This document shows, piece after piece, positions 1 through 26,444 of a DNA stretch of 64,000 bases. The notes beneath the pieces were generated by a model. It searched no databases. It was not told the DNA's origin and saw only the letters and a program-made list of their open reading frames with translations. A program made the position numbers and the translations under genes. Source of the stretch: Pseudomonadota bacterium. GTDB taxonomy: Bacteria > Myxococcota_A > Polyangia > Polyangiales > Polyangiaceae. How positions within the stretch are numbered: the stretch's first letter is position 1; the number at the start of each line of letters is the position of its first letter. The stretch is from assembly GCA_023418705.1 (NCBI GenBank), contig JAEZYZ010000062.1:17875-81874 (forward strand), given 5' to 3'.

Positions 1-272
1 GTCGCCTGCAGCAAGCGATCCAGCCAGAAGAGCACCGGGTAGTCCGTAGGCCGGAGCTCCCCCAACTCGTCTTGATACATCGACGCGGGCTCCGGCTGGT
101 CGTAGCCGCTGCGGCGATGGACGGGGATGGACGCGGCTGCGTCGGCGAACGAGGCGTAGACCCCGCGGAACAGATGACACTCGGTGGCAGACTGGAAGTA
201 ACGGCGATACCGCTCCTCGAGCAGGTTCTTGACCACCGGGAGTTGGCGCAATTTCTCGATGCGGTTCGACAT
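1..272 (-). CDS. hypothetical protein, 5-prime fragment (gene continues past the left edge)
   Basis: ATG at 272-270 opens a frame that stays open to nt 1 (MSNRIEKLRQLPVVKNLLEERYRRYFQSATECHLFRGVYASFADAAASIPVHRRSGYDQPEP...). Third codon positions are GC-rich. It starts 33 nt downstream of the hydrolase stop on the same strand. It is absent from the ORF track because it has no in-window stop. The FxGVYxSFxxA...GYD start recalls small methyltransferase-like proteins of sugar clusters, from memory only. Confidence 0.35.
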   Translation of the reverse strand, partial: MSNRIEKLRQLPVVKNLLEERYRRYFQSATECHLFRGVYASFADAAASIPVHRRSGYDQPEPASMYQDELGELRPTDYPVLFWLDRLLQA

Positions 273-305: not shown

Positions 306-1238
306 TCAGCGGGAGGTCGCCGCTCGCGACTCCGGCGCCACCAGTACGGAGAAAAACTCTCTCAAGCGGCGGGTGTACTCGCCGGTGGCCACTTTAGCGT
401 AGTCGCCATGGGCGGCCGACGGAAAAACGAGCAGCTGCTTCGGCTCTTCGGCAGCCGCGTAGAGGCGCTGCACCATGCTCGGCAGCACGACCTCGTCGCG
501 TGCTCCGCCGATGACCAGCACGGGGCGCGGAGCGAGCTTCGAAACCACGCGCACCGCCTTGTCCTCGTCGGGCTCGTAGCCGAGGAGCCGCTGCGACCAC
601 AGGGCGGGCAGCACGCTGAATGGCCCCCACCGCCGATACTCCCAGCGCGTTTGTTCGGTGACGTCGGCGGGGGTCCCGGCCAGCACGACGGCGCGCAGCC
701 GGGGGTCGACCGCGGCGACCTGGGCTACGATGTAGCCGCCCATGGAGAAGCCGAAGACGCCGATGCGCTCCGCGTCGACGTCGGGTCGACGTGCGATCCA
801 ATCGGTGGCGGCCCGGAGCGCCTCGCGCTCGGCGGCGCCCCATTCCACGACGCCGTCACTGTGACCGTGGCCGGGCCAATCGAACGCGAGCACCCCGTAG
901 CCGGCGTCCGCCAAGATACGGATTTCGGGGCCGAGCTCGCTGCGATCGCCCATCGAGCCGTGCGTGAGGATCACCGCGGCGCCGTTGTTCGAGGGCGCGA
1001 ACCACCCGCTGAGCTCGGAGCCGTTCGCGACCGGGATGCGGACGTCCTCGAGCCGCGAGACGCCCACGCTCGAACGATCGTGCTGCAGCGTGCCCCGGGG
1101 CGGGTGCAGGTAGGAACGTTCCTTGAGGTAGATGCGAACCCCCATCAACAGCCACACCCCGAGCGGCGCCGCCCCCAGCGTCAGCAGGGCGCCGCAGACC
1201 CAGCGCCTGCGGCTGAAGAGCTTCGAGAGGGCCTTCAA
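306..1238 (-). CDS. membrane-anchored alpha/beta-fold hydrolase
   Basis: 310-aa ORF with a basic N-terminus followed by a hydrophobic helix (WVCGALLTLGAAPLGVWLLMGV). HG motif (ILTHGSMGD), nucleophile elbow GFSMGG and a C-terminal His (SAAHGDY). The TTG start overlaps the TGA stop of the upstream megasynthase (TTGA). Confidence 0.8.
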   Translation of the reverse strand: MKALSKLFSRRRWVCGALLTLGAAPLGVWLLMGVRIYLKERSYLHPPRGTLQHDRSSVGVSRLEDVRIPVANGSELSGWFAPSNNGAAVILTHGSMGDRSELGPEIRILADAGYGVLAFDWPGHGHSDGVVEWGAAEREALRAATDWIARRPDVDAERIGVFGFSMGGYIVAQVAAVDPRLRAVVLAGTPADVTEQTRWEYRRWGPFSVLPALWSQRLLGYEPDEDKAVRVVSKLAPRPVLVIGGARDEVVLPSMVQRLYAAAEEPKQLLVFPSAAHGDYAKVATGEYTRRLREFFSVLVAPESRAATSR

Positions 1239-4200
1239 GGCGCGTCGACCTTGACGTACTTCGAAGGGTTCTGCGGGTGCGGTACGAACCAGGCGGGGTT
1301 GCCGCTGCGGTCACGCCCGAGCCGAGCGCCTGGAACCGGAGGCGCCTTCGGGTCGAAGAGGATCCGCTCCGGCTCCGAACGTCCCGGCAAGAACTCGGCC
1401 GCTTGAAGCTCAGCGACGGCGTCCTTGAAGGCCTGAACGATGGCAGCGACGTCCGCATCCGAATGCGCGGTGGTCAAAAAGCACGGGAACAGATCGAGGA
1501 TGTGGATGCCCTTCTCGCGCAGCGAATAAAACAGCAAATCTCCGTAGGGTTGCTCCTGCTTCCAGAACACCTTCCACAGCGACGCGAAGTGCCGGATTTC
1601 TAGCGGAGCGCCCACGGCTTCGAAGTGTGCGTTCAGCTCGGCGGCGAGCGCGGAGGTCTTCGCGTTGAGGGTCTCCTGCAACCTGGGCCCTTGCTCCTTC
1701 AAGTGAAGGAGCGCCGCCTTGGCCGCGGCGAGCGCCAGCGGGTGACGGCAGAAGGTCCCGGCGAAGTAGGTCACGCCGACCGTGGGCTTCGAGTCATCCC
1801 CGTACTGCCAGTGGCCCCCGTCGAGCGCATCCATGTACGGCCGCTTGCCGGCGATCACGGCGAACGGGTAGCCGCCGCCGATGACCTTGCCATAGCTGGC
1901 GAGGTCTGCCTGCACGCCAAAGTACGCTTGCGCACCACCCGGGTGGCAGCGGAAACCGGTGATGACCTCGTCGAAGATGTACACGGCGCCGGAGCGGTCC
2001 GCGATCCCCCTGAGCTCGTGCAGGAAGTCGCGAGGCTGGAGGTCCGGGCGGCGGCTCTGCACCGGCTCGACCATGATGGCGGCGAGCTCGTCGCCGCGTG
2101 CACGTAGGATCTCGAGCGCCTCGGGGCTGCCGTACTCCAGCACGAGGACGTTCTGTGCGGTGGAGGGGAGGATGCCCGGCGCCGCGGGGACCGCCCGGAG
2201 CTTCTTGGTTCCGCGCACGATCACCTCGTCGAAGATGCCGTGGTACGAGCCATTGAAGATGGCGATCGTGTCCCGACCAGTGACCGTTCGCGCGATGCGC
2301 ATGCAGCCCATGACCGCTTCGGAGCCGGTGTTGCAGAACGCGGCGCGCTCGGCCCCCGTCATGTCACAGATGAGGTCGGCCACCTCCGCCGCCAGCGGCG
2401 TCATGGGACCGATTTCGTGGCCGATGTCGATCTGCCGGATGACGGCCTCGTTGACGAAATCCGGCTGCCAGCCGAACAGGTTGCAACCAAACCCGCTCAG
2501 CGTGTCGATGTACTCGTTGCCATCCAGGTCCCACATGTGGGAGCCCTTCGAGCGCTCGATCACGATCTGATAGACGAGCTCCTTGAGTTGCGGCCGAAAG
2601 CCGGTGACCGCTCGGGGATCGGAGAGCCGCGAGCGGTGCTCCTGCGTGTACTCCTTGGAGCGGCGGGTGCGCGCCGTGTAGCGCTGGATGAAGGCATCCA
2701 GGCGCGCGCGCTGTCCCGGCGTCAGATCGTCGGTGCCGCTGGTGTTGATGCGCGCGATGGCGCCGAACGCCTTCTTGACGTCGTACGTCCTTTGGTATTC
2801 GGTCTCGCTCGAAGCGGCGTCGACGCCGTTGCTCGGCGCGGCCGGCGCCGCGGCAGCGGCCGGCGCTGCCGGCTGGAGAGCTGGCGCTGGCGCCTGGGGT
2901 TGGGCGACGGCAACGCTGGCAGGGGCCGAAACCGCGGGCGCGCTGGCAGACCGCCCCGCCAAGAGCTGCAGCTGCTGCTGCATCAGCAGCAGCTGTTGGT
3001 CGATGACGCGCTGAAGGTCACCGGCCGGACCGGCGACGATGGGCGCTGGGACGAGCGCCGCCGGTGCGACGGCGACGGGCGCTGCGGCGGTGATGGGCGC
3101 CGTGGCGGCCGCGGGCGCAGCGGTCGCTGCCGGCGGGGCTTGGGGATCCGGCGGTAGTTGTTGGTCCATGTGGTCTCCCAATCTGTCCAAACTCGGGAAC
3201 GCTTCCATCAGCTCACGGAACGTGATCTTGACGCGGAAAGTCTTTTGCAGCTGCTGCGCGACCTGGGTCAGCGACAAAGAGTCCAGCCCGAGCTCGAGGA
3301 ACGTGGCGTGGACGTCAACGTCACGCATCTCGAGCCCGGAAATGTCTTCGAAGACCTCGCGCAGCTGAGCCACCAGGCGGTCCTTGCGACCGGCTGCGGC
3401 GGGGGCGGATTCGGGCATGGGAACACTCATTGGAAACGTTGGGATGGGTTCGATCGGTAGTGCCGTCCCGGCGCCGTTCGAGGCGGGGGCCGGTTGGGGG
3501 AGGAGGTTGCCGTCAAGGGCCTGCGCGGGCCTGTCGGACCTCGGCAGCGGGTCGAGCCAGTAGCGCTTGCGCTCGAAAGGATACGTCGGCAGCGGTACGC
3601 GGCGGCGCCGCTCATCCGCGAAGAGGTTGCTCCAGTCGACCTCCACGCCGGCGCTCCAGAGCTGTCCGAGCGCGGCGAGCAGCGCCTTCCACTCCCCGTC
3701 GACGCTGCCCGAGTCCCCGAGCGTCGGGGTCGCCACCAAGCGGTCCCGGAGCTTCGATTGCTGCCGCGCCAGCGCCGTCAGGGTCGCCCGAGGGCCCACC
3801 TCGAGCAGAACGCGGTGCTCGTCCTTCAAGAGCTCCGCCGCCGCCTCTCGGAAGCGGACGCGCTCGCGCAGGTGCTTGGCCCAGTAGCGAGGATCGCAGG
3901 CCTGCTCCTCGGTGATCCAGGTCCCGGTCAGGGTGGAGACGAAGGGCACCTGCGGCGCCGACAGCCGGACCTTGCCCACCATCTCCGCGAAGGGCTCGAC
4001 CACCGGGTCCATCATGGGCGAATGGAAGGCGTGGGAGGTCAAAAGAGCACGGCACACCGTCCCCTCGGCTTCGAGAGCGCGCTGCAGCTCCGCCACGGCC
4101 TCGGTCGAGCCGGCAACGACGCAGAGCGAGGGCCCGTTGTCCGACGCGATGGCGAGGTCTTTTGGCAGCCGTCGTTCGAGGTCTGCGGCCGGCAGCCGCA

Positions 4201-7200
4201 CGGACAGCATGGAGCCGCCAGGGAGGTCTTGCATCAGACGCCCGCGGGCCGCCACCAGCGACAGGGCGTCCGGCAGCGACAGGACCCCCGCCAACACCGC
4301 GCTGACGAACTCGCCGATGCTGTGCCCGATCATGGCGGACGGTCGAATGCCCCACCCGAGCAGCACCTGCGCGACGGCGTACTCCACGACGAACAGCGCG
4401 GGCTGAGTGAACGCCGTGTTGCGGAGCGCCTCGGCGGCGTCGTCGGTCTGCGTGTCGGCGGGGAAGAGCAGCTCGCGCAGGTCCCGTCCGAGATCGGGCT
4501 TCAGGCGCTCCGCGCAGTCATCGACCACCGCTCGGAACACCGGATCGACGGTGTACAGGCCGAGCCCCATGTTGGGTGCCTGCGCGCCCTGCCCCGGGAA
4601 GAGGAACGCCACGTTGGCGCGCCCACCGTCGTAGCTGCGCGTCGCCGCTCGCTGAGGCTCCGACAGCTGGGCGATGGCCTCGGCGTGGCTGCTCGCGACG
4701 ACGAAGCGCCGCTCACGAAAGCCGCGCCGGCCCAATGCCAGCGTGTAGGCCACATCGGCGAGCGCGACGTCACCAGCGCCGCGCAGGTGTTCGGCGAGGT
4801 TCGTCGTTGCCTGGTTCAGCGCGTCGCGGGAGCGGGCTGACAGCAGCAACAGCTCACACGGACGAACGCTGGGTGTCGTCGCCGGTGCCGGCGGTTCCTC
4901 GAGCACGACGTGTGCGTTGGTCCCGCCCACGCCAAAGGAGCTCACCCCGGCGCGCCGGGGCCCGTCGCCGCGCGGCCACTCCGACAGCCGGTCGGCGACG
5001 TAGAACGGGGTGGACTCGAAGCCTATCTTGGGGTTCGGTCGGCGGAAATGCGCGGTCGGGGCGATGACCCCGTCGCGGAGGCAGAGCGCGGTCTTGATCA
5101 ACCCCGCGGCGCCCGCGGCCGACACGATGTGTCCGATGTTGCTCTTGACCGACGAGATGGCGCAGTACTGCCGATCCTGGGTGGTCTCGCGGAACGCCTC
5201 GGTCAGGGCCTCGACCTCGATGGGGTCGCCGAGCGGGGTCGCCGTCCCGTGCGCTTCGACGTACCCGATGGAGCGCGCGTCGATCCCGGCGACCTCTTGG
5301 GCCATCCGGACCACCGTGGCTTGCCCCTCAACGCTGGGCGCCGTGAAGCTGGCCTTGTTGCCCCCGTCGTTGTTGGCGGCAGCGCCGCGGATGACGCCGT
5401 AGATCGTGTCGCCGTCGGCCTGCGCGTCCGCCAAGCGTTTGAGGACGACGACGGCGACCCCGTCGTTGAAGGTGGTGCCCGTCGCGTCGGCGTCGAAGCT
5501 GCGGGTGTAGCCGTCGGCCGACAGCATGGCGCCTTCCTGATACAGATACCCGCTGCGCGGTGGGCAGGTCAGGGAGGCTGCGCCCGCGATGGCGACGTCA
5601 CACTGACCCGTTCGAAGGCTCCAAAAGGCCTCGACCACAGCGACCAGCGAGGTCGAGCACGCGGTGTGCACACTGACGGCGGGACCCCGAAGGTTCAACT
5701 TGTGCGCGATCCGCGTCGCGACGTAGTCCTTCTCGTTTTGCAGGAGCAGGCTGATGTCGTCCAGCGGACCCTGGTACTCCGGGCGCGACAAGATGTGATA
5801 GGTCAGGTAGCTGTTGCTGTAGACGCCCGCGTACACGCCGACGAGGCCGTCGATGGTCTCCGGGGCGTAACCGGCGTGCTCGAGAGCCTCCCAGACCACC
5901 TCGAGCATCAACCGATGCTGCGGGTCCAGGACCCGTGCTTCGCCCGGCGTGATGCCGAAAAAACCTGCGTCGAACTGGTCGAACCCCTCGACGATGCCGC
6001 GCGCCTTGACGTAGTTCGGCGCGTTCACCAGGTCCTTCGGGAGGCTCGGGTCCAGCTCGTCGTCGGAGAAGCGGTGCAGGGCCGCCTCGCCGCTTTTCAC
6101 GAGCGACCAAAAGGCGTCGACGTCATTGGCGCCGGGGAAGCGGCCCGCCATCCCTACGATGGCGACGTCGTCGGCGCCTTCGGTGCGCCGCCGCTGGCGA
6201 GTCCGCTGCTGCGCACCGGCGGCGCCGCTGCGGCGCGCCAGATAGCCGTCGAGATCGCGCGCGGACGGGTGCTGGAAAAAGCGGGCTACCGGGACGTCGA
6301 GCCCGTATTGCTCACGCAGGCGGGTCAGCACCTTCATCGCCAGCAGCGAGCTGCCACCGAGCTCGAAGAAATTGTCCTCGGCGCCGATCGGCTCGAAGCC
6401 CAGCACCTCCGCAAAGATCGCGCACACCGCGCGCTCGATGTCGGTACTCGGCGGCACCGGTGGCGAGCCCGTGTCCGGCCGCTCGCGCGGCGGCGCTGGC
6501 AGCGCCTTGCGATCGAGCTTGCCGCTCGGGTTGATCGGCAAGGCGACCAACCAGACGAAGTGCGCGGGCACCATGAACTCCGGCAAGCTGCGTGTCAGCC
6601 AGCCGCGAAGCTCGCCGCCGGTCGGGCGCTCCGCCTCGTCGCCGACCAAGTAGGCGACGAGGCGATCGTCGCCTTGGTCATTTCGCAAAGCTACCGCCGC
6701 CTGGGTCACGGCCGGATGGGTGAGCAGCACGGCCTCGATCTCGCCGAGCTCGACGCGGAAGCCGCGCAGCTTGACCTGGAAGTCGATGCGGCCGAGGTAT
6801 TCGACCTGCTGGTCGTGCGTGACGCGCGCCAGATCGCCGGTCTTGTAGAGGCGGGCGCCCGGCTTTGAAGAAAATGGATCGGGGACGAACCGCTCCGCCG
6901 TCAGCTCCGGGCGGTTGAGGTAGCCGCGCCCGACCTGAGCGCCGCCGATGTACAGCTCACCCGGGACGCCGACGGGCAGGGGGCGCAGCCGCTCGTCCAA
7001 GATGTGGATCTGAGTATTGGCGACCGGCTTCCCGATGACGACCCGCGCCGACCCGGGCTCGCAGTCCCAGTAGGTGACGTTGACGGTCGCTTCGGTGGGT
7101 CCGTACAGGTTGTGCAACGAAGCGCCGAGCTTGGAGAAAAACGCCTCCATCAGCTCTGGCGTCAACGCCTCGCCGCCGCAGGTGACCCTCCGCAAGCTCG

Positions 7201-8719
7201 AGCAACGCGTGGCCTCGGGGTGCGCCAGAAAGACGCGCAGCATCGACGGGACGAAGTCGATCACCGTGATGCGTTCACGCTGGATCGTCTCGATCAGGTA
7301 CTCGACGTTCTTGTGGCCGCCCGGTTCGGCCAAGACGATCTGCGCACCTGCCAACAGTGGCCAGAACAGCTCGCAGATCGAGGCGTCGAAGCTGTAGGGC
7401 GTCTTTTGCAGGAAGCGATCGGCGGGGCTGAGCTGGTAGTGGTGCTGCATCCAGAAGAGGCAAGCGACCAGCTGGCGATGCTCGATCATTCCCCCCTTGG
7501 GGCGACCGGTGGAGCCGGAGGTGTAGATCACGTAGGCGAGATCCGCGGGAGACACCGTGACGGACGGCGGCGACTCCGCAGCGCCCTGGGTGAGCTCGGG
7601 ATCGTCGAGCAGCAGCACGCGCCCAGCGAAGCTGCTCGGCAGCTTCGGCGCGGTCCGGCTCTGCGCCAAAACGAGCCGCGCCGCCGTGTCCTCCAGCATG
7701 AACTCGAGGCGCTCCGCAGGGTAGTCGGGATCGAGGGGAACGTAGGCGGCGCCCGCCTTCAAGATGGCCAACAGCGCGACCATCATCTCGAACGACCGCT
7801 CGACGCACAGCCCCACCAGCGTCTCGCGGCCGACCCCCTCGCGCAGCAGGACGTGGGCGAGCTGGTTCGCGCGAGCGTCGAGCTCGGCGTAGCTCAGCGA
7901 CCGGTCGCCGGAGAACACCGCGGGCGCTTGCGGGGTGCGCCGCACCTGAGCCTCGATCAGGTCGTGCAGGCATGCCGACGGGTAGTCGAGCTCAGCGGCG
8001 TTCAACCCTGCGATGAGCTCGGCGTCTTTGGGCTCCGAGAGGTCGACGTCGCAGAGCGCCAGGTCGGGGTTGGTCGCAAGCGCGGTGAGGGCCGCGCGCA
8101 GGTGCCGGAGCGCGCGCTCGGCGGCGTCGCGGCTCAGCCGCTCGGGGTCGAAGCGGGCGCAGAGCTGCTCGAAATCCGGGGTCAACTCGAGGCGCAGGGG
8201 GGCGCCCTCCGATGGCGTGGCATCGCCTCCGCCGAACGCCACCACCGTCTGGCAAATCGGCACGCTATCGGGCCACTCGAGCCAGGCCCGCAGCGCTTGC
8301 AGATCCGGGCGCTGCTGCGAGCGCTGCGCGCGATCGGCGTCGATCGCACGCAGCCAGTCGCCCGCCGTCGCCTGCGGCAGGACGGACACGGGCGCCGGCA
8401 GCAGCGTCGAAGGCGCGTCCAGAGACACGCTGCCGAACAAGACGTCGGGCTCTCGCTGGTGGCGGCTCGCTACGAGCGCCCAGGCGCCCTCGAGCAAGCT
8501 CGACGGCTGAATTCCCAGGGACTGCACGGCGGAGCGCAGGGCGGCGCCCTGCTCGGAGGTCGGCAGATCCACCGACGTGGGGGCGGTGCACTGCGACGTT
8601 CGGCCGGGGGCCGCGTCGTCGAGCAGCGGCGTGGGCTGGCTGAAGCCGCGAAGGCGCTGGACCCAGTAATCCCGGCTCGTGCCTTCGGAGCTGGGCGCGG
8701 CGAGAAACGTCTCTGTCAC
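1235..8719 (-). CDS. hybrid NRPS-PKS: condensation C-lobe only / A / PCP / KS / AT(malonyl-type) / ACP / class-III aminotransferase
   Basis: 2494-aa ORF with a GTG start preceded by GAGGA. Domains by motif:
- Condensation-like C-terminal lobe without HHxxxDG (aa 1-235, nt ~8015-8719).
- A domain ([67 protein letters not shown]; nt ~6485-7972).
- PCP (FFELGGSS; nt ~6230-6457).
- KS (TACSTS, EAHGTAT, SNIGH; nt ~4895-6172).
- AT (GHSIGE, HAFHS; nt ~3620-4618).
- ACP (LGLDSLS; nt ~3170-3388).
- Ala/Pro/Gln-rich linker (nt ~2825-3157).
- GSA-aminomutase-like PLP aminotransferase (SGSEAV, DEVITGFR, SYGKVIGGG; nt ~1400-2617). Confidence 0.95.
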   Translation of the reverse strand: MTETFLAAPSSEGTSRDYWVQRLRGFSQPTPLLDDAAPGRTSQCTAPTSVDLPTSEQGAALRSAVQSLGIQPSSLLEGAWALVASRHQREPDVLFGSVSLDAPSTLLPAPVSVLPQATAGDWLRAIDADRAQRSQQRPDLQALRAWLEWPDSVPICQTVVAFGGGDATPSEGAPLRLELTPDFEQLCARFDPERLSRDAAERALRHLRAALTALATNPDLALCDVDLSEPKDAELIAGLNAAELDYPSACLHDLIEAQVRRTPQAPAVFSGDRSLSYAELDARANQLAHVLLREGVGRETLVGLCVERSFEMMVALLAILKAGAAYVPLDPDYPAERLEFMLEDTAARLVLAQSRTAPKLPSSFAGRVLLLDDPELTQGAAESPPSVTVSPADLAYVIYTSGSTGRPKGGMIEHRQLVACLFWMQHHYQLSPADRFLQKTPYSFDASICELFWPLLAGAQIVLAEPGGHKNVEYLIETIQRERITVIDFVPSMLRVFLAHPEATRCSSLRRVTCGGEALTPELMEAFFSKLGASLHNLYGPTEATVNVTYWDCEPGSARVVIGKPVANTQIHILDERLRPLPVGVPGELYIGGAQVGRGYLNRPELTAERFVPDPFSSKPGARLYKTGDLARVTHDQQVEYLGRIDFQVKLRGFRVELGEIEAVLLTHPAVTQAAVALRNDQGDDRLVAYLVGDEAERPTGGELRGWLTRSLPEFMVPAHFVWLVALPINPSGKLDRKALPAPPRERPDTGSPPVPPSTDIERAVCAIFAEVLGFEPIGAEDNFFELGGSSLLAMKVLTRLREQYGLDVPVARFFQHPSARDLDGYLARRSGAAGAQQRTRQRRRTEGADDVAIVGMAGRFPGANDVDAFWSLVKSGEAALHRFSDDELDPSLPKDLVNAPNYVKARGIVEGFDQFDAGFFGITPGEARVLDPQHRLMLEVVWEALEHAGYAPETIDGLVGVYAGVYSNSYLTYHILSRPEYQGPLDDISLLLQNEKDYVATRIAHKLNLRGPAVSVHTACSTSLVAVVEAFWSLRTGQCDVAIAGAASLTCPPRSGYLYQEGAMLSADGYTRSFDADATGTTFNDGVAVVVLKRLADAQADGDTIYGVIRGAAANNDGGNKASFTAPSVEGQATVVRMAQEVAGIDARSIGYVEAHGTATPLGDPIEVEALTEAFRETTQDRQYCAISSVKSNIGHIVSAAGAAGLIKTALCLRDGVIAPTAHFRRPNPKIGFESTPFYVADRLSEWPRGDGPRRAGVSSFGVGGTNAHVVLEEPPAPATTPSVRPCELLLLSARSRDALNQATTNLAEHLRGAGDVALADVAYTLALGRRGFRERRFVVASSHAEAIAQLSEPQRAATRSYDGGRANVAFLFPGQGAQAPNMGLGLYTVDPVFRAVVDDCAERLKPDLGRDLRELLFPADTQTDDAAEALRNTAFTQPALFVVEYAVAQVLLGWGIRPSAMIGHSIGEFVSAVLAGVLSLPDALSLVAARGRLMQDLPGGSMLSVRLPAADLERRLPKDLAIASDNGPSLCVVAGSTEAVAELQRALEAEGTVCRALLTSHAFHSPMMDPVVEPFAEMVGKVRLSAPQVPFVSTLTGTWITEEQACDPRYWAKHLRERVRFREAAAELLKDEHRVLLEVGPRATLTALARQQSKLRDRLVATPTLGDSGSVDGEWKALLAALGQLWSAGVEVDWSNLFADERRRRVPLPTYPFERKRYWLDPLPRSDRPAQALDGNLLPQPAPASNGAGTALPIEPIPTFPMSVPMPESAPAAAGRKDRLVAQLREVFEDISGLEMRDVDVHATFLELGLDSLSLTQVAQQLQKTFRVKITFRELMEAFPSLDRLGDHMDQQLPPDPQAPPAATAAPAAATAPITAAAPVAVAPAALVPAPIVAGPAGDLQRVIDQQLLLMQQQLQLLAGRSASAPAVSAPASVAVAQPQAPAPALQPAAPAAAAAPAAPSNGVDAASSETEYQRTYDVKKAFGAIARINTSGTDDLTPGQRARLDAFIQRYTARTRRSKEYTQEHRSRLSDPRAVTGFRPQLKELVYQIVIERSKGSHMWDLDGNEYIDTLSGFGCNLFGWQPDFVNEAVIRQIDIGHEIGPMTPLAAEVADLICDMTGAERAAFCNTGSEAVMGCMRIARTVTGRDTIAIFNGSYHGIFDEVIVRGTKKLRAVPAAPGILPSTAQNVLVLEYGSPEALEILRARGDELAAIMVEPVQSRRPDLQPRDFLHELRGIADRSGAVYIFDEVITGFRCHPGGAQAYFGVQADLASYGKVIGGGYPFAVIAGKRPYMDALDGGHWQYGDDSKPTVGVTYFAGTFCRHPLALAAAKAALLHLKEQGPRLQETLNAKTSALAAELNAHFEAVGAPLEIRHFASLWKVFWKQEQPYGDLLFYSLREKGIHILDLFPCFLTTAHSDADVAAIVQAFKDAVAELQAAEFLPGRSEPERILFDPKAPPVPGARLGRDRSGNPAWFVPHPQNPSKYVKVDAP

Positions 8720-11241: not shown

Positions 11242-11841
11242 CTACTCGGCAACGACGACGTCGCCCGACTGCAGCTTGAAGCGCTGGACGTGCTGCGCTC
11301 CGCGCAGAATGTCCACGTAGTCGAAGCGAATGCGCTGTCCGTCACGCAAGACGTACACGGCCGTCTCGTCGGCGAACTCGGTCAAGCCGCCGGCCTCGGC
11401 CATGGCGTCGATCAGGCGCGCGGGGGGCGGCAGCGCGAAGCGCCCGGTCTCTCGCACTTCCCCGAGCACGGTGACCTGAACGGTCGACTCCTCGATCACG
11501 ACGATGACGTGGGGCTCCGCCACGAACGGCTTCAGCAGCTGCTCGAGCTCGCGAGCGGCGGCCGACGGGAGCTTGCCCGCGAGCTGCTGCTCGCCCAGAA
11601 GCGGGATGGCCACGAGCCCGTCGCTTCGGACCCGCGCTCGCACGGACATGGGCTCCTGACCGAAGACGCGGACGCTCACGACGTCTCCAGGGCGGATGAC
11701 CTCGGGGTGGATGGGCGCCGCCGCGGGCTGATAGCTCTCCGCGCGGACGTAGGTGCCGCTGCCGCGGCAAGCCGCCATGAAAAACGCGGCGCCCGCCACC
11801 AACAAGAGAAGGCCGTGCCGGAGTCGAAGCTGGTGACGCAT
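11242..11841 (-). CDS. short outer-membrane polysaccharide export (OPX, Wza-like) lipoprotein
   Basis: Poly_export-type segment (VIRPGDVVSVRVFGQEP...[33 protein letters not shown]) and one SLBB-like segment (VTVLGEVRETGRFALPPPARLIDAMAEAGGLTEFAD). Lipobox FFMAAC. At only ~200 aa it has no Wza-type C-terminal membrane helix. Three in-frame ATGs (11880, 11853, 11841); the last gives the best signal peptide. Confidence 0.85.
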   Translation of the reverse strand: MRHQLRLRHGLLLLVAGAAFFMAACRGSGTYVRAESYQPAAAPIHPEVIRPGDVVSVRVFGQEPMSVRARVRSDGLVAIPLLGEQQLAGKLPSAAARELEQLLKPFVAEPHVIVVIEESTVQVTVLGEVRETGRFALPPPARLIDAMAEAGGLTEFADETAVYVLRDGQRIRFDYVDILRGAQHVQRFKLQSGDVVVAE

Positions 11842-12128
11842 GCGAAATTCCATCGTGGCTGATCGGGCGGATGAAAACATGGAATCGCGGCGTGGGCAAT
11901 CGCCCGGAGGGCGCGCCGGAGCCGATCGTTCGGGCGGTCTCGAGCTCCCGAGCCGGGTCGGGGAACCGGCCCGCCCGCGCTCATCCGGAGGCGGCTCCGC
12001 GCCGCCCGAGAGCGCGCCCGAGCATCACCCGAGCATCAGGGGGATCGCTTTGCCTCGCCTTCGAGCGTGATCTAGCGTTTACTGTTTTGGGGGCACGCGT
12101 CTCCCGCCACCCTGAGCCCGACCCATCG

Positions 12129-13313
12129 ATGTTAGCTCTCGACGTCCTGCTGATGGCTGCCAGCGCGCCTCTCGTGTGCTTCGCGGCCTACCTGTGCCTG
12201 CTCGCGCTCCTGGCTCGCAGAAATCCCGAAGCGTCCGGCTCGGGAACGACCCGCTTCGCCGTCGTCGTGCCGGCACACGACGAGGAGCTCGGCATCACGC
12301 GTACCGTCGAGAGCCTCTTGGCGCTCGACTACGACGCGGACCGGTTCGAAATCGTGGTGGTGGCCGACAACTGCAGCGATCGGACGGCCGAGCTCGCCGC
12401 GGCGGCCGGCGCCCGGGTCCTCGTTCGGCAGCACGCCACCGAGCGGGGCAAGGGCTACGCGCTGAACTTCGCCTTCGAGCGGTTGATGGAGGAGCAGCGG
12501 TTCGATGCCTTCGTGGTCGTCGACGCGGACACGGGCGTCTCGCCGAACTTGCTCACCGCGGTCGCCGCTCGGCTGGAGCGAGGCGCCCACGCCGTGCAGG
12601 CGCATTACCGGGTCCAGAACCCGATGGATTCCTGGCGCACGCGCCTGATGGTGCTCGCCCTGGCGCTGTTTCACGACGTGCGGTCGCTGGCGCGGGAGCG
12701 GCTCGGGCTCTCGGTGGGGCTGCGCGGCAACGGCATGGCGTTCTCCAGAGCGCTCTTGGAGCGAGTGCCGCACACGGCGTTCTCGATCGTGGAAGATCTG
12801 GAGTACGGCATCCGCATCGGTATGGAGGGCTACCGCGTCCACTACGCCGAGGAGGCGGCCGTCTTCGGCGACATGGTGGCGGGCGAGCGGGACTCTCGAT
12901 CGCAGCGAGAGCGCTGGGAGGCCGGGCGGCGCGCCATCCGCCGGCAGCTCGCCGGACCCTTGCTGGTGCGCGCGCTGAAGACGCGCGACCCGGTGCTCTT
13001 CGACCTGGCGATGGACCTCCTGGTGCTCCCGCTGGCGGCGCTGGCGGGCTGGGTCGCGCTCGGCCTCGGCGCGGCGGGGGCGTCGGTGGCGCTGCTCGCG
13101 CGCCCGGTGTGGCTGATCGCGCCTTGGGCGGCGGCCGCGGCGGCGATGACCGTGTATGTCGGGCGCGGCATCTCGATCTCCGGCTTGGGGATGCGGGGGG
13201 TCGCGGCCTTGCTGTGGGCTCCCGTCTACCTGATCTGGAAAGTGGCCTTGCGCATCCGTAGCCTGGGTGCGTCGCAGCGCGAGTGGGTCCGGACGGCACG
13301 CGCAGGGAAGTAG
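12129..13313 (+). CDS. membrane-embedded family-2 glycosyltransferase with processive-synthase motif set
   Basis: N-terminal TM helix, then VVVPAHDEE (D), VVVDADTG (DxD), SIVEDLEYG (ED) and SQRERWEAG (QRxRW), followed by 3-4 C-terminal TM helices. ATG at 12129 chosen. The track ORF starting at 11871 adds an Arg/Pro-rich, non-protein-like leader. Confidence 0.85.
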   Translation: MLALDVLLMAASAPLVCFAAYLCLLALLARRNPEASGSGTTRFAVVVPAHDEELGITRTVESLLALDYDADRFEIVVVADNCSDRTAELAAAAGARVLVRQHATERGKGYALNFAFERLMEEQRFDAFVVVDADTGVSPNLLTAVAARLERGAHAVQAHYRVQNPMDSWRTRLMVLALALFHDVRSLARERLGLSVGLRGNGMAFSRALLERVPHTAFSIVEDLEYGIRIGMEGYRVHYAEEAAVFGDMVAGERDSRSQRERWEAGRRAIRRQLAGPLLVRALKTRDPVLFDLAMDLLVLPLAALAGWVALGLGAAGASVALLARPVWLIAPWAAAAAAMTVYVGRGISISGLGMRGVAALLWAPVYLIWKVALRIRSLGASQREWVRTARAGK

Positions 13314-13322
13314 GCGCGGGGC

Positions 13323-14858
13323 ATGGCGGCGGTCACGGCGGCGCTGGGAGCGGCACGCGCACGGAGCATCCCGCGGGACGCGTTCTTGTGGCCGTCCATC
13401 CTGATCGTGCTGCTGATCTTCGTCGGGTGTTGGATCGCCGATCAGGTCGGGTCCAACGTCCTCATCTTCGCGGTCCTCTGGGGACCTTTGCTGTATCGCT
13501 ACGTCCTGGCGGCGCCCGTGCACCTGTCGGCGCGGGTGATGTTCCTGCTCGCGCTGGTGCTGGAGCCGCCCGCGGAGCAGCCCGGCTACGGCTACTGGAC
13601 GTCGGTGCTCGCGCCGGCCAGCCAGATCTACTACGACGCCCTCAAGGCCTGGGCGGGGATCCCCGGCCTGTCGTTTTCGCTCTACACGCTGCTGTGCCTG
13701 GTGCTGTACTTCCGGGCGACGCGCGGCCGCAAGGCGCCGGGGTATGTCGCGCCGCCGCCGGAGGCGGTGAAGGCCGTCAAGCTCTGGTTGCTCGCGCTGA
13801 CGCTGCTCTTGATCTGGGGCCTGATCCGCGGCGGCAACGGCAAGGCCGCGTTTTTCCAGCTTCAGCACCTGTACACGCTGGGGTTTTGCGCGCTGGCGTT
13901 CTTGCACGCGCTGCGCGGTCCGGCAGATCTGCGAGCCCTCGGGACGATCGTGGTGGTGGCGGCCATCACCAAGGGTCTGCTGGTCGGGTGGGTGTACTAC
14001 GTCGTCTGCGCCCCGATGGGGTTGAAGCCGTTTTACGCCACGACCCACTCCGACTCGGTGACCTTCGCGATGTGCATCATCATCCTGGCCACGCGCTTGT
14101 TCGAAGAGCGCGACGGGCGGAGCCTGCGCCTGTTCCTGTGCATCGTGCCGTTCATCGTGATGGCGATCGTGATGAACAACCGGCGCCTCGCCTTCGTCGG
14201 CGTGGGCTTCGGGGTGGTGACGACCTACGCGGTGATGAAATCAGGCCGCCTCAAGCGAAAGATCGCGCGCATCGCCCTGGCGCTCGCCCCGCTGGTGGTC
14301 GTCTACGTGAAGGTGGGCGGCCACTCGACGAACCCGCTGTTTGCGCCGGCGGCGATGGTCAACTCCGCCCTCAGCGGGACCGACAGCTCGTCGATCACCC
14401 GCGACATCGAGAACTACAACCTGATCTTCACCATGAACCAGCAGGGCCGGATCTTGGGCACGGGGTTCGGTCACGAGTACATCGAAGCCGTCCGGGCCGA
14501 CGACATTTCCCAGGCCTTCGCGCTTTATCGCTACATCCCGCACAACAGCGTGCTCTGGCTGTGGAGCTTCGGCGGGCTGATCGGGTTCACGGCGCTGTGG
14601 ATGGTCTACCCGCTCTTGGCGTACTTCGGGGCGCGGGGCTACCACGGCAGCCTGGATCCGATCGAGCGCGCCGCGGGGCTGACGACGCTGGCCGGCGCCA
14701 TGACCCTGATGGCGCAAAATTGGGGGGACATGGGCTTGCAGAGCTACACGAGCCTGACGGTGTTCGGCATCTGCTACGCGGTGGCGGCCAAGTTGTGCAT
14801 GGCCGCCGACAGCCGCCGCGCCAGCGCGCCCGCCGCCACGGCGAGCGTCGCGCGTTGA
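13323..14858 (+). CDS. Wzy-like polymerase / O-antigen-ligase-family polytopic membrane protein
   Basis: 511 aa with at least 10 hydrophobic helices. Large loop followed by ILGTGFGHEY...YRYIPHNSVLWLWSFGGLIGF, resembling the Wzy_C / O-antigen ligase signature. It starts 10 nt after the GT2 stop. Confidence 0.7.
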   Translation: MAAVTAALGAARARSIPRDAFLWPSILIVLLIFVGCWIADQVGSNVLIFAVLWGPLLYRYVLAAPVHLSARVMFLLALVLEPPAEQPGYGYWTSVLAPASQIYYDALKAWAGIPGLSFSLYTLLCLVLYFRATRGRKAPGYVAPPPEAVKAVKLWLLALTLLLIWGLIRGGNGKAAFFQLQHLYTLGFCALAFLHALRGPADLRALGTIVVVAAITKGLLVGWVYYVVCAPMGLKPFYATTHSDSVTFAMCIIILATRLFEERDGRSLRLFLCIVPFIVMAIVMNNRRLAFVGVGFGVVTTYAVMKSGRLKRKIARIALALAPLVVVYVKVGGHSTNPLFAPAAMVNSALSGTDSSSITRDIENYNLIFTMNQQGRILGTGFGHEYIEAVRADDISQAFALYRYIPHNSVLWLWSFGGLIGFTALWMVYPLLAYFGARGYHGSLDPIERAAGLTTLAGAMTLMAQNWGDMGLQSYTSLTVFGICYAVAAKLCMAADSRRASAPAATASVAR

Positions 14859-14875
14859 ATGTCGCCAGGCGCCCG

Positions 14876-15046
14876 TCAGTGCAGCCGCGGGTACAAGTAC
14901 AAGAGGCCAAACAGGTAGAAGGCGCAGTACGCCGTCATCCACTTGAGCGTGAACTTGAACCCATCCTGCCGGCGTTCGAAGCGCGCTGCCCGGATCGGGA
15001 TGATCAGCGCCATGAACATGATCGAGAGCAAGAGGAGCTTCTGCAT
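14876..15046 (-). CDS. small two-helix membrane protein (56 aa), below the ORF-track cutoff
   Basis: ATG at 15046-15044 to TGA at 14878-14876. Sequence: MQKLLLLSIMFMALIIPIRAARFERRQDGFKFTLKWMTAYCAFYLFGLLYLYPRLH. Two hydrophobic helices with a basic loop. Convergent with the Wzy-like gene. Confidence 0.3.
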   Translation of the reverse strand: MQKLLLLSIMFMALIIPIRAARFERRQDGFKFTLKWMTAYCAFYLFGLLYLYPRLH

Positions 15047-15135
15047 GGCTGGCGACCGTGATCATGACGTCAGCGCGGGTCGACGGCAACGGTCTCCTTG
15101 GCGACGGCAGCGCGATGAGCGCTGCTTGATTTTCG

Positions 15136-15430
15136 TTCACAGGAAGGAACGGAAGGACGGAAGATTCTGGGAGTTCGGACCGACGACGTCGGCCCCCCCT
15201 TCCGAGCTTCCGCTCTCCTATGAAAACGAGGTCCGAAGTACGCACCACGAGCGCCCTTGAATTTTTCACAGGAAGGGCGGAAGAGCAGAAGATTTTGGGA
15301 TTGGGGATGAGGTCCGAAGCGGGCGTGGGTGCGTGGGTCGTCACAGCGATTCACGTCGCGCCGGTCGAATCGACGCCGATCGGGGACCGACGACCTCGGT
15401 CCCCCTTCCGATCTTCCGACCTTTCTGTAA
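15136..15430. repeat. cluster of purine-rich direct and inverted repeats in a 537-bp intergenic region
   Basis: - TTCACAGGAAGG..GGAAG...GAAGATTYTGGGA occurs at 15136-15172 and 15265-15300, with an inverted version at 15400-15430.
- GGACCGACGAC(G/C)TCGG(C/T)CCCCC..TTCCGA.CTTCCG occurs at 15177-15212 and 15384-15418.
- GAGGTCCGAAG occurs twice (about 15228 and 15309).
- Embedded palindrome CCGACGACGTCGG. Confidence 0.6.
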
Positions 15431-15583
15431 ACAATCTCCGAGCCAGACTGGTCGACACAGCTCGCTGTCTCGGTCGTGAAATCCGTTTTTCACCGACTCG
15501 AGGTGGGCCGAAGGCCCTGATGGTCTTCCTGTGCTGATCTCCGATCGAGACCCTCGACGCACCTCGCTGTCTCAGCGAGGCGC

Positions 15584-18500
15584 TCACGGCCGCCGGCGGC
15601 GATCGAGCATGGCCTGGCGCAGCCGCTGTCGCTCGGCGCCGCGCTCGGCGCTTTGGTCGAGCGCCCCGGTCGAGGCGGCGTCGCCTTCGGCCAGAAAGCG
15701 CGCCAGACCCCGGATCGTGGGGTACCGGAACAGGTCGACCAGCTGCAGCGGGCGGCTGACCTTCGGCTTCAACTTGCCGAGCAGCTGGACGGTGAGCAGG
15801 GAGTGGCCGCCGAGATCGAAGAAGTTGTCGTCCACGCCCACCGCGGGCAGCTTCAGCACCTCGCGCCACATCTCGGCGATGAGCAGCTCGTGCTCGCTGC
15901 TCGGCCGCTCGCGCTCCGCCAGCGGCGCCTTCTGTTGCTGCTCGGGTGCCGGCAGGGCGTTGCGATCGAGCTTCTTGTTGGGCGTCTGCGGGAACGCGGT
16001 CATCGGCACGATCGCGGCCGGCAGCATGTAGTCCGGGAGGCGCTCGGCCAGGTGTTGCTTGAGCGCGCTCGTGTCGACGCCGCCGCCGTCGGGGATGACG
16101 TAGGCCACCAGGCGCTTGTCGCCTTGCGTGTCCTCTCGGGCGAGCACGACCGCCTGACGCACCGCCGGGTGCTCGGTCAACAGGGCCTCGATCTCGCCGA
16201 GCTCGATCCGGTAGCCGCGGATCTTGACCTGGTGGTCGGCTCGACCGCGGTAGCGTAGAACGCCGCTTGGATCGACGGTCGCGACGTCTCCCGTGCGGTA
16301 GGCGCGCGCGCCCGGGCGGAAGGGGTGGGCGACGAACCGGCTCGCCGTGAGCTCGGGCCGGCCGAGGTAGCCGCGGGTCACGCCGTCGCCGGCGATCAAG
16401 AGCTCGCCGTCTTCGCCGGGGGGCAGCAGGTTGCCGCAGCGGTCGACCACGAACGCCTCTTGATTGTGCAAGGGGCGTCCAATCGGGATGTCGGTCGAGG
16501 ACTCGGTGACCTCGTGCGAGGTCGACCACACCGTCGTCTCGGTCGGACCGTAGACGTTGATGAGCCTGCCTGGGAGCGCTCGCCGCAGGTCAGCAGCCAG
16601 CGCGCCGCCGAGCGCCTCCCCGCCGACCAGCAGCGTCTGCAGCTCCCCCAAGCGCGCGCGCGTCTCGTCGTCGCCGACCAACATGCTGGCCATCGAGGGC
16701 GTGCACTGCAGGTGGGTGACGCCATGCCGCTCGATGAGCTCCGCCAGCGTGGCATCCGCTTCGTCCACGTCGCTGTTGCAGCGAGCGTGCACCTCCGCCA
16801 AAAGCGGCAGGTTCTGCAGCACCTGATCGGTGGGGACCCCGAAGTCGATCAGGCAGGCGATTTCGTCGACGTCGGATCGCCGCACGGCGTCGACGATGCC
16901 GAGCGCCGATTCCACGCTGCCGAACAGCCCGCTGGTCGCGTAATACCGCTCGAAGGCATGATCGAGCAGCGCGTCCATCTCCTCGGCGCTGAGGTTGTCG
17001 GTGGTGAAGGAGCCGCCGTCGAGCCGGTGTTTGAAGGCCGGGAACGACCAGGCGGCTTCTTTGATCAAGCCGACGGAGGTCCGCAGGTACTGCTTCATGG
17101 GCTCGCGGACCGCGCGCTTCACCGCCTCGTCGCTCTCCCCCACGAAGGTGTGGAGCATGAGCGACACGGTGCCGCGCCCGGGGTGACCCGCTTCGGTCCA
17201 GGCCTTGCGATAGATCCGAACCTTCTCGGTCAAATCGGCGAACGACTGACCGAGCAAGTGGGTCAACAGGTTGGCGCCGATGCGCCCCGCTCGCTCGAAC
17301 GTCTCGGGGCTGCCTGCCGCGGTCACCCAGACGGGCAGCTCCTTCTGCACCGGGCGGGGCAGCGTGCCGATGACCACCTCGCGCCCCTCTCCATTTCGGA
17401 AGGGCAACCGCTCTCCGCGCCAGAGGCGGCGCACCGTCTCGATCGCCTCGAACATGCCGTCTTTGCGGTCGGCAAACCCCTCCGGGCGGATGCAGAAATC
17501 ATTCGGCTGCCAGCCCGAGGCGAACGAAATCCCGACGCGGCCGTTCGACAGGTTGTCCACCAGCGCCCAGTCCTCCGCGATGCGGATCGGCGAGTGCAGC
17601 GGCGAGACACAGCTGCCGGCCCGCAGCGCCACGCGCTTGGTGATCATCGCCAGCGCCGCGTTCGTCACGGCGGGGTTCGGATAGAGGCCGCCGAAGGCGT
17701 GGAAGTGCCGCTCTGGCGTCCACACGGCGACAAACCCGTTTTCGTCGGCGAAGCGCGCCCCTTCGGTCAACAGCCGATAGCGATCGCCGCCTTGGGCGTT
17801 CTCGTCGGCGGAGAAGTAGAACGCCGAGAAGTCGACGCGGCGCGCGTTCTTGGCCCCCGCGGACACCGTGCCCGAGGAGACGACCACGTGAAAGCCGTGG
17901 GTCAACGTCCAGAGCAGCTCGAGCACCGAGATGTCGAAGGACAGGCTCGTGACCGCCAGCCAGGTCCCCGGCTTCTCGGGCCGGAGCACCTCATCCATGC
18001 CGCGGAAGAAGTTGACCACGTTGCGGTGCTCCACCATTACGCCCTTGGGGCGCCCCGTGGAGCCCGACGTGTAGATGACGTAGGCCAGGTGATGGCCTTC
18101 GACGCCGCTCTGGGGCGGGCTCGCTGCACCGTCGTCGACGCTCCCGTCGTCCACGACGATCTTGTCCAGGCGACCCAGACCGCTCCGGCCTTGGTGCGCT
18201 CGGTCGGTCAGCAAGAGCGTGAGCGCTGCGTCTTCGATCACCAGCCGGAGGCGCTCCTCGGGGTAGCGCGGATCCAGCGGGACGTACGCGCCGCCTGCCT
18301 TGTGGATGGCCAGGAGGCTCACCAGCAGGTGCACGCTCCGATCCATGAAGACGCCGACCAGCGTGTCGGGCCCGACCCCGCGCTGCTGCAGCCGATGCGC
18401 CAAGGCGTTGGCGCGGGCGTCGAGCTCGGCGTAGGTCAGGGTCACGCCGCGGGCGGTCACCGCCGGTCGATCCGGCGTCCGCGCGGCTTGCGCGGCGATC

Positions 18501-26100: not shown

Positions 26101-26444
26101 CCGGCGCTCTCGAGCGCCTCCCAGCACACCTCCAGGAAATGGCGGTGCTGCGGATCCAGCACGCTGGCTTCGCGCGGAGAGAAGCCGAAAAACTTGGGAT
26201 CGAACAGCGAGAGGCCGTCGATCGGCGCCGTCGCCCTCACGTAGCGAGGATCGGTGAGGTGCGCGTCGGGCACGCCGGCGCGGCGCAGCGCCTCGGCGCT
26301 CGGGAACTGGATGCTCTCCACTCCGTCGCGCAGGTTCGCCCAGAAGCGGAACACGTCCGGCGCTCCTGGGAACCGAGCTGCCATGCCCACGATGGCGATG
26401 TCCGTACTCTGTAGTTGATCGTCGTCGACGTCGTATGCGCCCAT
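20121..26444 (-). CDS. type I PKS: KS / AT / KR / DH / PCP-type carrier / thioesterase
   Basis: 2107 aa, ATG at 26444. Domains by motif:
- KS (TACSTS, ECHGTGT, SNIGH; nt ~25125-26405).
- AT (GHSLGE, with VPAHS where HAFH/YASH normally sits; nt ~23865-24833).
- KR ([13 protein letters not shown] in [16 protein letters not shown]; nt ~22395-23732).
- DH ([23 protein letters not shown]; nt ~21501-22361).
- Carrier (FFELGGHS; nt ~21030-21251).
- TE (GYSGGG, PGTHDS; nt ~20175-20957). Confidence 0.95.

Follow-up and report, generated by a model that had tools for sequence, protein, structure and literature searches.

Where does a hybrid nonribosomal peptide synthetase-polyketide synthase (NRPS-PKS) send its chain when the protein ends in an aminotransferase? 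The question is raised by a gene at 1235-8719(-) of a 64,000-nucleotide stretch of a Polyangiaceae genome (the window, contig C125:17875-81874; the genome is 7.2 Mb in 520 contigs). This gene, here called the AMT gene, encodes a protein with adenylation (A), peptidyl carrier protein (PCP), ketosynthase (KS), acyltransferase (AT), acyl carrier protein (ACP), and class-III aminotransferase (AMT) domains, and the original prediction from its sequence was that nothing lies downstream of the AMT domain. The protein does end there, but when the 17.9 kb to the left of the window was added, two NRPS genes were found on the same contig, one for a condensation (C)-A-PCP protein and the other for a docking domain-C-A-PCP-thioesterase (TE) protein. 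Since these genes lie beyond the left window edge, what looked like a dead end results from that edge and from a gene boundary. We think it likely that the AMT gene supplies the first two modules of a hybrid line with four modules, split over three proteins, with a 3,4-diaminoacyl-Gly-X product.

The partner genes and their conservation

The order of genes from the left flank into the window is Wzx, C-A-PCP, TubC_N-C-A-PCP-TE, MATE, a TIGR04325 methyltransferase (minus strand), a membrane hydrolase, and the AMT gene. The two partner genes (C125:8304-15817) are found 3.3 to 10.8 kb past the 3' end of the AMT gene, on the opposite strand and convergent with it, and the MATE efflux gene overlaps the end of the C-A-PCP-TE gene. 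Both partner A domains have codes that appear Gly-like (DILQLGCVWK and DILQIGGIYK), the first being close to the glycine code DILQLGLIWK.

Relatives were found in at least 585 species in a scan with one genome per species. These species belong to Pseudomonadota, Myxococcota, and Bacteroidota, and 80 loci were retained, drawn from Lysobacterales, Burkholderiales, Myxococcota, and Bacteroidota. Given enough flank, a C-starting NRPS gene begins at most ~50 nt from the end of the AMT gene in these loci. The exceptions are L083, in which there is no C-domain match within 10 kb downstream of the AMT gene, and L019, which has the convergent layout of the present genome. The downstream protein is C-A-PCP-C-A-PCP (~2150 aa) in Pseudomonadota and Myxococcota and C-A-PCP-TE (~1340 aa) in Bacteroidota; everything is fused in one protein in seven of the 80 loci. 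The downstream A codes are mostly of the DILQLG(M/L)(V/I)WK type, which, on the pattern of published codes, we read as Gly-type. Thus, the absence of an acceptor that the original prediction described does not stand: the cognate C-A-PCP and C-A-PCP-TE proteins are present in trans, and the relatives almost always have a C-starting NRPS gene next to the AMT gene. It had also been considered that homologues might always carry a downstream C-A-PCP that was simply lost here; they very nearly always do, and in this genome the module has been displaced, not lost.

The 120 best protein matches come from Dyella, Lysobacter, Rhodanobacter, Pseudoxanthomonas, Burkholderiales, Corallococcus, and Polyangiaceae. 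Barring three truncated records, they have an identical Pfam set and a length of ~2030-2700 aa. In 104 of them a motif at the start of the AMT domain was identifiable, and all 104 end 512-523 aa past this motif, showing that the end of the protein after the AMT domain is the rule. As defined in the present analysis, the family consists of A-PCP-KS-AT-ACP-AMT proteins with a C-A-PCP in trans, having 512-523 aa from KKAFGAIARI to the end, the C-terminal tail described below, and a DPFAG partner.

Downstream genes in five loci were located by tblastn. The only relative with the same starter A code as the present protein, DACDTGLVNK (locus L091, protein P0003), keeps the five-gene set in a different, divergent arrangement around the AMT gene. 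Its orthologues have identities of 59% (C-A-PCP), 59% (dock-C-A-PCP-TE), 48% (hydrolase), and 57% (methyltransferase), and its C-A-PCP protein has the N-terminus ESFDPFARG and the C-terminus ...QEEFVL. The retention of the five genes despite rearrangement supports their working jointly.

A motif pair specific to the split proteins

How might the AMT protein recognize the C-A-PCP protein? The C-terminal tail of the AMT protein has the consensus PPVPGARLGRDxxGxPAWFVPxPxxPGKYxKV, which was found in ~60 of 61 unfused AMT proteins from three phyla, with one-residue variants allowed. The tail is missing from the naturally fused proteins that were checked, in which the AMT domain is followed by a short linker and then the C domain. 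The downstream proteins start with (D/E)(Y/F)DPFAGG, ~12 residues ahead of the C domain (39 examples), and the fused proteins are without this motif. The left flank and window together, 82 kb, were scanned in six-frame translation, and FDPFAG occurs a single time, at the N-terminus of the C-A-PCP protein (L010:8370-8420, L010 being the locus of the present genome). A Pfam search of the tail and of the partner N-terminus gave no family. The AMT domain and tail were modelled with AF2 (AlphaFold2) on an alignment of eight rows. The model is poor overall (mean predicted local distance difference test score, pLDDT, 62), but in it the tail is predicted as three short strands with pLDDT ~80.

Because the tail and the DPFAG motif are on the split proteins and neither is on the fused ones, we infer that they are a docking pair between the AMT protein and the C-A-PCP protein, and they may represent a docking system not described before. 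At the next junction, the C-terminus of the C-A-PCP protein is ...EEFVL, and the third protein opens with TubC_N; judging from these termini, this junction is of the known TubC_N type.

The aminotransferase domain

Conservation within the AMT protein is highest in the AMT domain (73-83% identity to the relatives), which in the Pfam order is placed straight after the ACP of the KS-AT-ACP module. In a sequence search of the PDB, the best match was the MycA AMT, 6KFM, with an expectation value (E) of 2.4e-133 over 448 residues (query 29-476), that is, the full length. Glutamate-1-semialdehyde (GSA) aminomutases rank behind it, the best with E 1.5e-52. The domain had been described as a GSA-aminomutase-like pyridoxal phosphate (PLP) enzyme; the assignment to class III is correct, but the closest enzyme is MycA AMT, and the large lead of 6KFM over the GSA aminomutases identifies the domain as a MycA-type β-ketoacyl-ACP aminotransferase and not just a GSA-like enzyme.

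The PLP lysine, the lack of which had been named as a possible refutation, is present in SYGKVIGGG (nt 1871-1897) and aligns with YGKIIGGG of MycA 6KFM. The Asp for the pyridine nitrogen aligns as well (IFDEVITGF, with IMDEIITGF in MycA), within the DEVITGFR motif at nt 1949-1972. We suggest that this domain transaminates the ACP-bound 3-oxoacyl chain. The chemistry proposed earlier, in which a β-keto thioester becomes a β-amino thioester to give a 3,4-diamino-type acyl-ACP, agrees with this and has its parallel in MycA and ItuA.

Domain organization of the AMT protein

Domains were assigned with Pfam and TIGRFAM/NCBIfam profiles, and their positions are collected in Table 1. The reading frame is open over 2494 codons (2494 aa). 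It starts with the GTG at 8719, preceded by a GAGGAA ribosome-binding site, and the epimerase/dehydratase gene upstream ends at 8775, 55 nt ahead, so the short N-terminus of the AMT protein is real and is not a frameshift artefact. The Pfam order is C fragment, A, PCP, KS, KS-AT linker, AT, second PP-binding, and Aminotran_3, which bears out the predicted order A-PCP-KS-AT-ACP-aminotransferase, and all of the catalytic motifs are present. Thus, the protein has the features of a type I hybrid NRPS-PKS, namely the A core motifs, the PCP and ACP serines, the KS Cys-His-His, and the AT GHSxG. The DEVITGFR, SYGKVIGGG, GHSIGE, and HAFH motifs and the Gln/Leu stretch lie where the original prediction had put them, and the linker has close to the predicted length.

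Table 1. Features of the AMT gene, its product, and the genes around it. Positions are those of the window unless C125, the contig, is given; aa, residues of the AMT protein.
Feature	Position	Strand	Details
C-A-PCP gene	C125:8304-11558	(+)	code DILQLGCVWK; N-terminus MINNEDDFDPFAGGEV; C-terminus ...EEFVL
TubC_N dock-C-A-PCP-TE gene	C125 ~11555-15817	(+)	overlaps C-A-PCP gene; PF18563 TubC_N; code DILQIGGIYK
TIGR04325-family methyltransferase, 5' part	1..272 (whole gene C125:17358-18146)	(-)	TIGR04325 220.5 bits, cutoff 80
Membrane-anchored α/β serine hydrolase	306..1238	(-)	GFSMGG; Pfam Hydrolase_4 and Abhydrolase_1; N-terminal transmembrane helix
N-terminal fragment, C-terminal lobe of condensation domain	8000..8719	(-)	aa 1-240; Pfam Condensation aa 15-98, profile 194-277 only
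Adenylation domain	6518..7954	(-)	AMP-binding 256-601 and AMP-binding_C 660-734; PF00501 E 9e-102; TIGR01733 478.6 bits
PCP	6251..6430	(-)	PF00550, aa 764-823; LGGSS serine aa 790
Ketosynthase	5045..6172	(-)	PF00109 and PF02801, aa 850-1225; Cys-His-His in TACSTS, EAHGTAT, KSNIGH
Acyltransferase	3752..4606	(-)	PF00698 E 1e-55, aa 1372-1656; GHSIGE nt 4310-4327; HAFH nt 4022-4033, aa 1563-1566
ACP	3140..3337	(-)	second PP-binding stretch; LGLDS serine aa 1813
Ala/Pro-rich ACP-AMT linker	2795..3139	(-)	114 aa, 40 Ala and 18 Pro; Gln/Leu helix DQQLLLMQQQLQLL nt 2960-3001
Class-III aminotransferase (AMT), MycA type	1385..2794	(-)	Aminotran_3 aa 2050-2411; PLP lysine aa 2278 in SYGKVIGGG
C-terminal tail of the AMT protein	1238..1384	(-)	PPVPGARLGRDRSGNPAWFVPHPQNPSKYVKV; 49 aa; putative docking element

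The N-terminal C fragment, in which the HHxxxDG motif is not present, is the least conserved folded part of the protein, being 29-34% identical to the relatives compared with 48-83% for the catalytic domains. Some relatives (P0014, L058) have a full C domain at the N-terminus. The fragment is probably vestigial or structural. In AT domains, HAFH marks malonyl specificity and YASH methylmalonyl specificity; by this motif rule, the AT is of the malonyl-CoA type, and the earlier assignment from GHSIGE and HAFH is borne out. The linker between the ACP and the AMT domain matches no Pfam family, and its motif QQ..QQL.LL was found in 40 of the 50 family members checked.

The starter amino acid

The A codes were read from alignments, made with MAFFT for the starter code. 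The code previously read by hand, D-A-C-D-T-G-L-V-N-K, was reproduced exactly by alignment, and among the 82 homologues with alignable A domains it is common only to P0003. Since Asp235 and Lys517 are kept, the substrate is an α-amino acid. Position 278 is Asp, and the residues at the other positions are small. The code resembles both the Gln/Glu pattern, DAxDLGVVDK, and the Orn code, DMENLGLINK, and our guess from Asp278 is a starter with a polar or basic side chain. The starter codes vary across the family: DALWLGGTFK and DAFWLGGTFK (Val-like), DVQFIAHVVK (Pro-like), and DFWNIGMVHK (Thr-like) occur together with rarer ones.

In L091, genes for an ArgE/DapE-like deacylase, aspartate-semialdehyde dehydrogenase (Asd), and aspartokinase adjoin the unit (L091:19553-22983) and may serve for precursor supply. 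Close copies of the L091 aspartokinase and deacylase were sought in the present genome and were not found. The idea that the starter necessarily comes from aspartate semialdehyde was dropped for this reason and is kept only as a weak lead.

Neighbouring genes and polysaccharide context

The membrane hydrolase gene had been described as translationally coupled downstream of the AMT gene, which is correct: its TTG start overlaps the TGA stop of the AMT gene as TTGA, and the protein has an N-terminal transmembrane helix. Orthologues of this hydrolase adjoin the AMT gene in L003, L019, L054, L091, and L092. When the flanking open reading frames of the related loci were clustered without prior labels, this hydrolase type formed cluster 17, with four loci in the sample. 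The first 90 codons of the methyltransferase gene make up window 3-272, and the rest lies beyond the left window edge. TIGR04325 methyltransferases, which are typical of O-antigen regions, are recurrent neighbours of the AMT gene, with 11 loci found by tblastn; in L091 the gene is at 18515-19369.

Directly upstream of the AMT gene, on the same strand, are OPX, EpsX-like, and epimerase/dehydratase genes. Wzx is directly upstream of the C-A-PCP gene, and GT2 (EpsU-like), Wzy, phosphoglycosyl transferase (PGT), GT4, GH44, and rml genes are nearby. The neighbouring exopolysaccharide (EPS) proteins are similar to EpsX, EpsU, and Wzy of Myxococcus, with scores below cutoff. A GH44 glycoside hydrolase accompanies the AMT line in the present genome (L010:2106-4352) and in its two closest metagenomic relatives (L003:18494-20467 and L092:18606-20438); L003 also has an EpsX gene, and a FemAB-like Acetyltransf_6 gene is present in L003 as well as in L092.

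Among the 63 full-length loci (those of at least 20 kb), 31 have one or more glycan-assembly genes (PGT, Wzy, GT2, polysaccharide deacetylase, or Wzx) within the few kb of free flank. The commonest neighbour clusters are a JmjC/cupin-like protein, phosphopantetheinyl transferase, PGT, Wzy, GT2, two types of α/β hydrolase, TIGR04325 methyltransferase, polysaccharide deacetylase, and Wzx. The JmjC/cupin-like protein (~308 aa), which may be a hydroxylase, is encoded directly upstream of the AMT gene at L030:3893-4819 and in 18 other loci. It was found in many Lysobacterales and some Myxococcota loci and is missing from the present locus. The two α/β hydrolase types occur as a pair in 12 of the 43 loci without a TE (for example, L058:18039-18971 and L016:18630-19451) and in none of the 20 that have one, which suggests that the pair substitutes for the TE. 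The pair resembles TIGR03100 (E 2e-20) and TIGR03101 (E 7e-31), both below cutoff.

The nearest relatives are Myxococcota-type metagenome-assembled genomes. Of 41 genomes from the same family or order, seven have the AMT gene, the present one included, and the other six proteins are 60-69% identical, no closer than matches from other phyla. This patchy distribution may reflect horizontal spread.

Proposed assembly line and alternatives

In the proposed line, the A domain of the AMT protein would load an α-amino acid on the PCP, and the KS would carry out decarboxylative condensation with malonyl-ACP, supplied by the AT, to give 4-amino-3-oxoacyl-S-ACP. The MycA-type PLP domain would then transaminate C3, giving 3,4-diaminoacyl-S-ACP. 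Next, the tail would dock on the FDPFAG N-terminus of the C-A-PCP protein, and the chain would be condensed with Gly-S-PCP. The chain would pass by TubC_N-type docking to the C-A-PCP-TE protein, where a second small residue would be added, and the TE would release a small, amine-rich 3,4-diaminoacyl-Gly-X pseudo-tetrapeptide. This product might be exported by the adjacent MATE pump or attached to the EPS made by the surrounding genes.

Several points weigh against this scheme. With a 3-oxo thioester beside it, an unprotected 4-amino group could close a ring ahead of transamination, giving a tetramic acid or lactam, and the true intermediate may be N-protected in some manner. The AMT gene and its partner genes are on different strands and in separate transcription units, which is unusual in the AMT family. 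The hydrolase and the methyltransferase are conserved partners for which the four-module model has no role. The code DACDTGLVNK settles on no one substrate for the A domain, and the case for docking by the tail is a correlation of presence and absence. Finally, the literature gave no biochemical or genetic data for any member of the family.

What is the fate of the product, if the line works as proposed? The peptide might be grafted onto, or prime, a Wzx/Wzy exopolysaccharide, giving the glycan free amines. The transfer step would then be performed by the TE or, in the TE-less relatives, by the α/β hydrolase pair. The genes of the line are interleaved with EPS genes in the present genome, about half of the full-length related loci have glycan genes in the flank, the hydrolases of the TE-less loci resemble those of exosortase A (EPS) loci, and there is the O-antigen association of TIGR04325 methyltransferases. 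However, no peptide-to-sugar transferase was identified, and an ordinary TE on the last module together with an overlapping MATE gene fits a secreted small molecule. Furthermore, the other half of the loci, such as most Variovorax loci and Corallococcus L002, have no glycan genes in the flank. Attachment to the glycan is therefore a tentative proposal that we rather doubt. We hold with similar reserve its fullest form, in which the line is a glycan-tailoring device that places diaminoacyl-Gly-X on the EPS repeat unit and the tail/DPFAG pair is a previously undescribed docking system.

The overlap of the hydrolase start with the AMT gene stop, and the orthologous hydrolases that accompany the closest relatives, would also fit a stand-alone bimodule without an NRPS acceptor, from which the 3,4-diamino acid is freed by the membrane hydrolase or cyclised to a 4-aminopyrrolidinone; by chemical reasoning alone, the γ-amine could attack the thioester. 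We consider this very unlikely, given that a cognate C-A-PCP with a family-specific N-terminal motif exists and that nearly every family member has a C gene downstream. This type of hydrolase occurs in so few loci (the four of cluster 17) that it cannot be the general release route. The hydrolase had been put forward as an off-loader, but with a TE on the last module it is not needed for this. The other route suggested originally, transfer to the TE-bearing PKS, is still harder to credit. In this case, the chain would be passed to the KS-ketoreductase (KR)-dehydratase-containing protein KS-AT-KR-DH-ACP-TE (window 20121-26444), which would extend it once more and release it. This PKS opens with a KS, has a TE, and belongs to the same gene block, 11 kb upstream. 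However, its gene overlaps that of an F-A(MOx)-PCP protein, which is its obvious loader, and DPFAG is not found on its N-terminus. The F-A(MOx)-PCP/KS-AT-KR-DH-ACP-TE cassette (window 15584-26444) is in none of 83 related loci, indicating that the present polysaccharide locus houses two thiotemplate cassettes that are independent of each other. We thus favour the four-module line with partners in trans.

Relation to known systems

The four-module line most resembles MycA, ItuA, and BmyA (mycosubtilin, iturin, and bacillomycin), in which a KS-AT-ACP module is likewise followed by a class-III PLP aminotransferase and then a C domain. In those systems the starter is a fatty acid introduced by an acyl ligase (AL), whereas the present starter is an α-amino acid introduced by A-PCP; the product would consequently have vicinal 3,4-diamines and no lipid tail. 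Compared with iturin subunit A (AL-ACP-KS-AT-ACP-AMT-C-A-PCP), the AMT protein has no fatty-acyl starter domain and begins with a C fragment without HHxxxDG. It also has a stop codon 49 aa after the AMT domain, this stretch being a dedicated conserved tail, and the C-A-PCP is a separate gene. Unlike in the lipopeptide systems, the downstream peptide would be only two Gly-like residues, and the genes are in a polysaccharide locus.

McyE and NdaD (microcystin and nodularin) have an in-line AMT after a PKS module, a long Adda chain, and a C-A-PCP in cis. Going by this general description, they share with the present line an AMT domain after a PKS module and then NRPS condensation. Statine-type modules (A-PCP-KS-AT-KR-ACP; pepstatin- and didemnin-like) make one malonyl extension, and the KR gives 3-hydroxy-4-amino acids. 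By the same kind of comparison, a γ-amino acid unit would be formed in both, with a transaminase replacing the KR here to give 3,4-diamino acids. TubC_N docking, of the tubulysin type, is found at the start of the third protein, whereas the junction from AMT to C would use the other pair, which has no Pfam family.

Exosortase A/PEP-CTERM EPS loci (TIGR03098, TIGR03100, TIGR03101) also have carrier-protein chemistry inside EPS loci. The present locus differs in having a fused TE and no hydrolase pair, and no exosortase turned up, though none was searched for; the resemblance is a lead and does not imply membership. The literature searched on AMT domains gave only iturin-like lipopeptide or microcystin cases, with no product for the AMT family and no gene cluster assigned to a vicinal 3,4-diamino acid building block. 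Papers on carenaemin and flavipulchrin were set aside as precedents, as the architectures differ.

For the present locus, the chief result is corrective, and the lasting interest is at the level of the family. MycA-like β-amination is known, and the amino-acid-primed form would give vicinal 3,4-diamino acids. The tail/DPFAG pair may be a new docking code, one that is open to direct test, and could help to engineer split NRPS-PKS lines. The family is widespread, with its at least 585 species, and recurs in polysaccharide loci, which points to a possible thiotemplate-made decoration of surface glycans. If the connection to the glycan is true, it would mean that a bacterial polysaccharide is decorated with a peptide-polyketide by a thiotemplate line.

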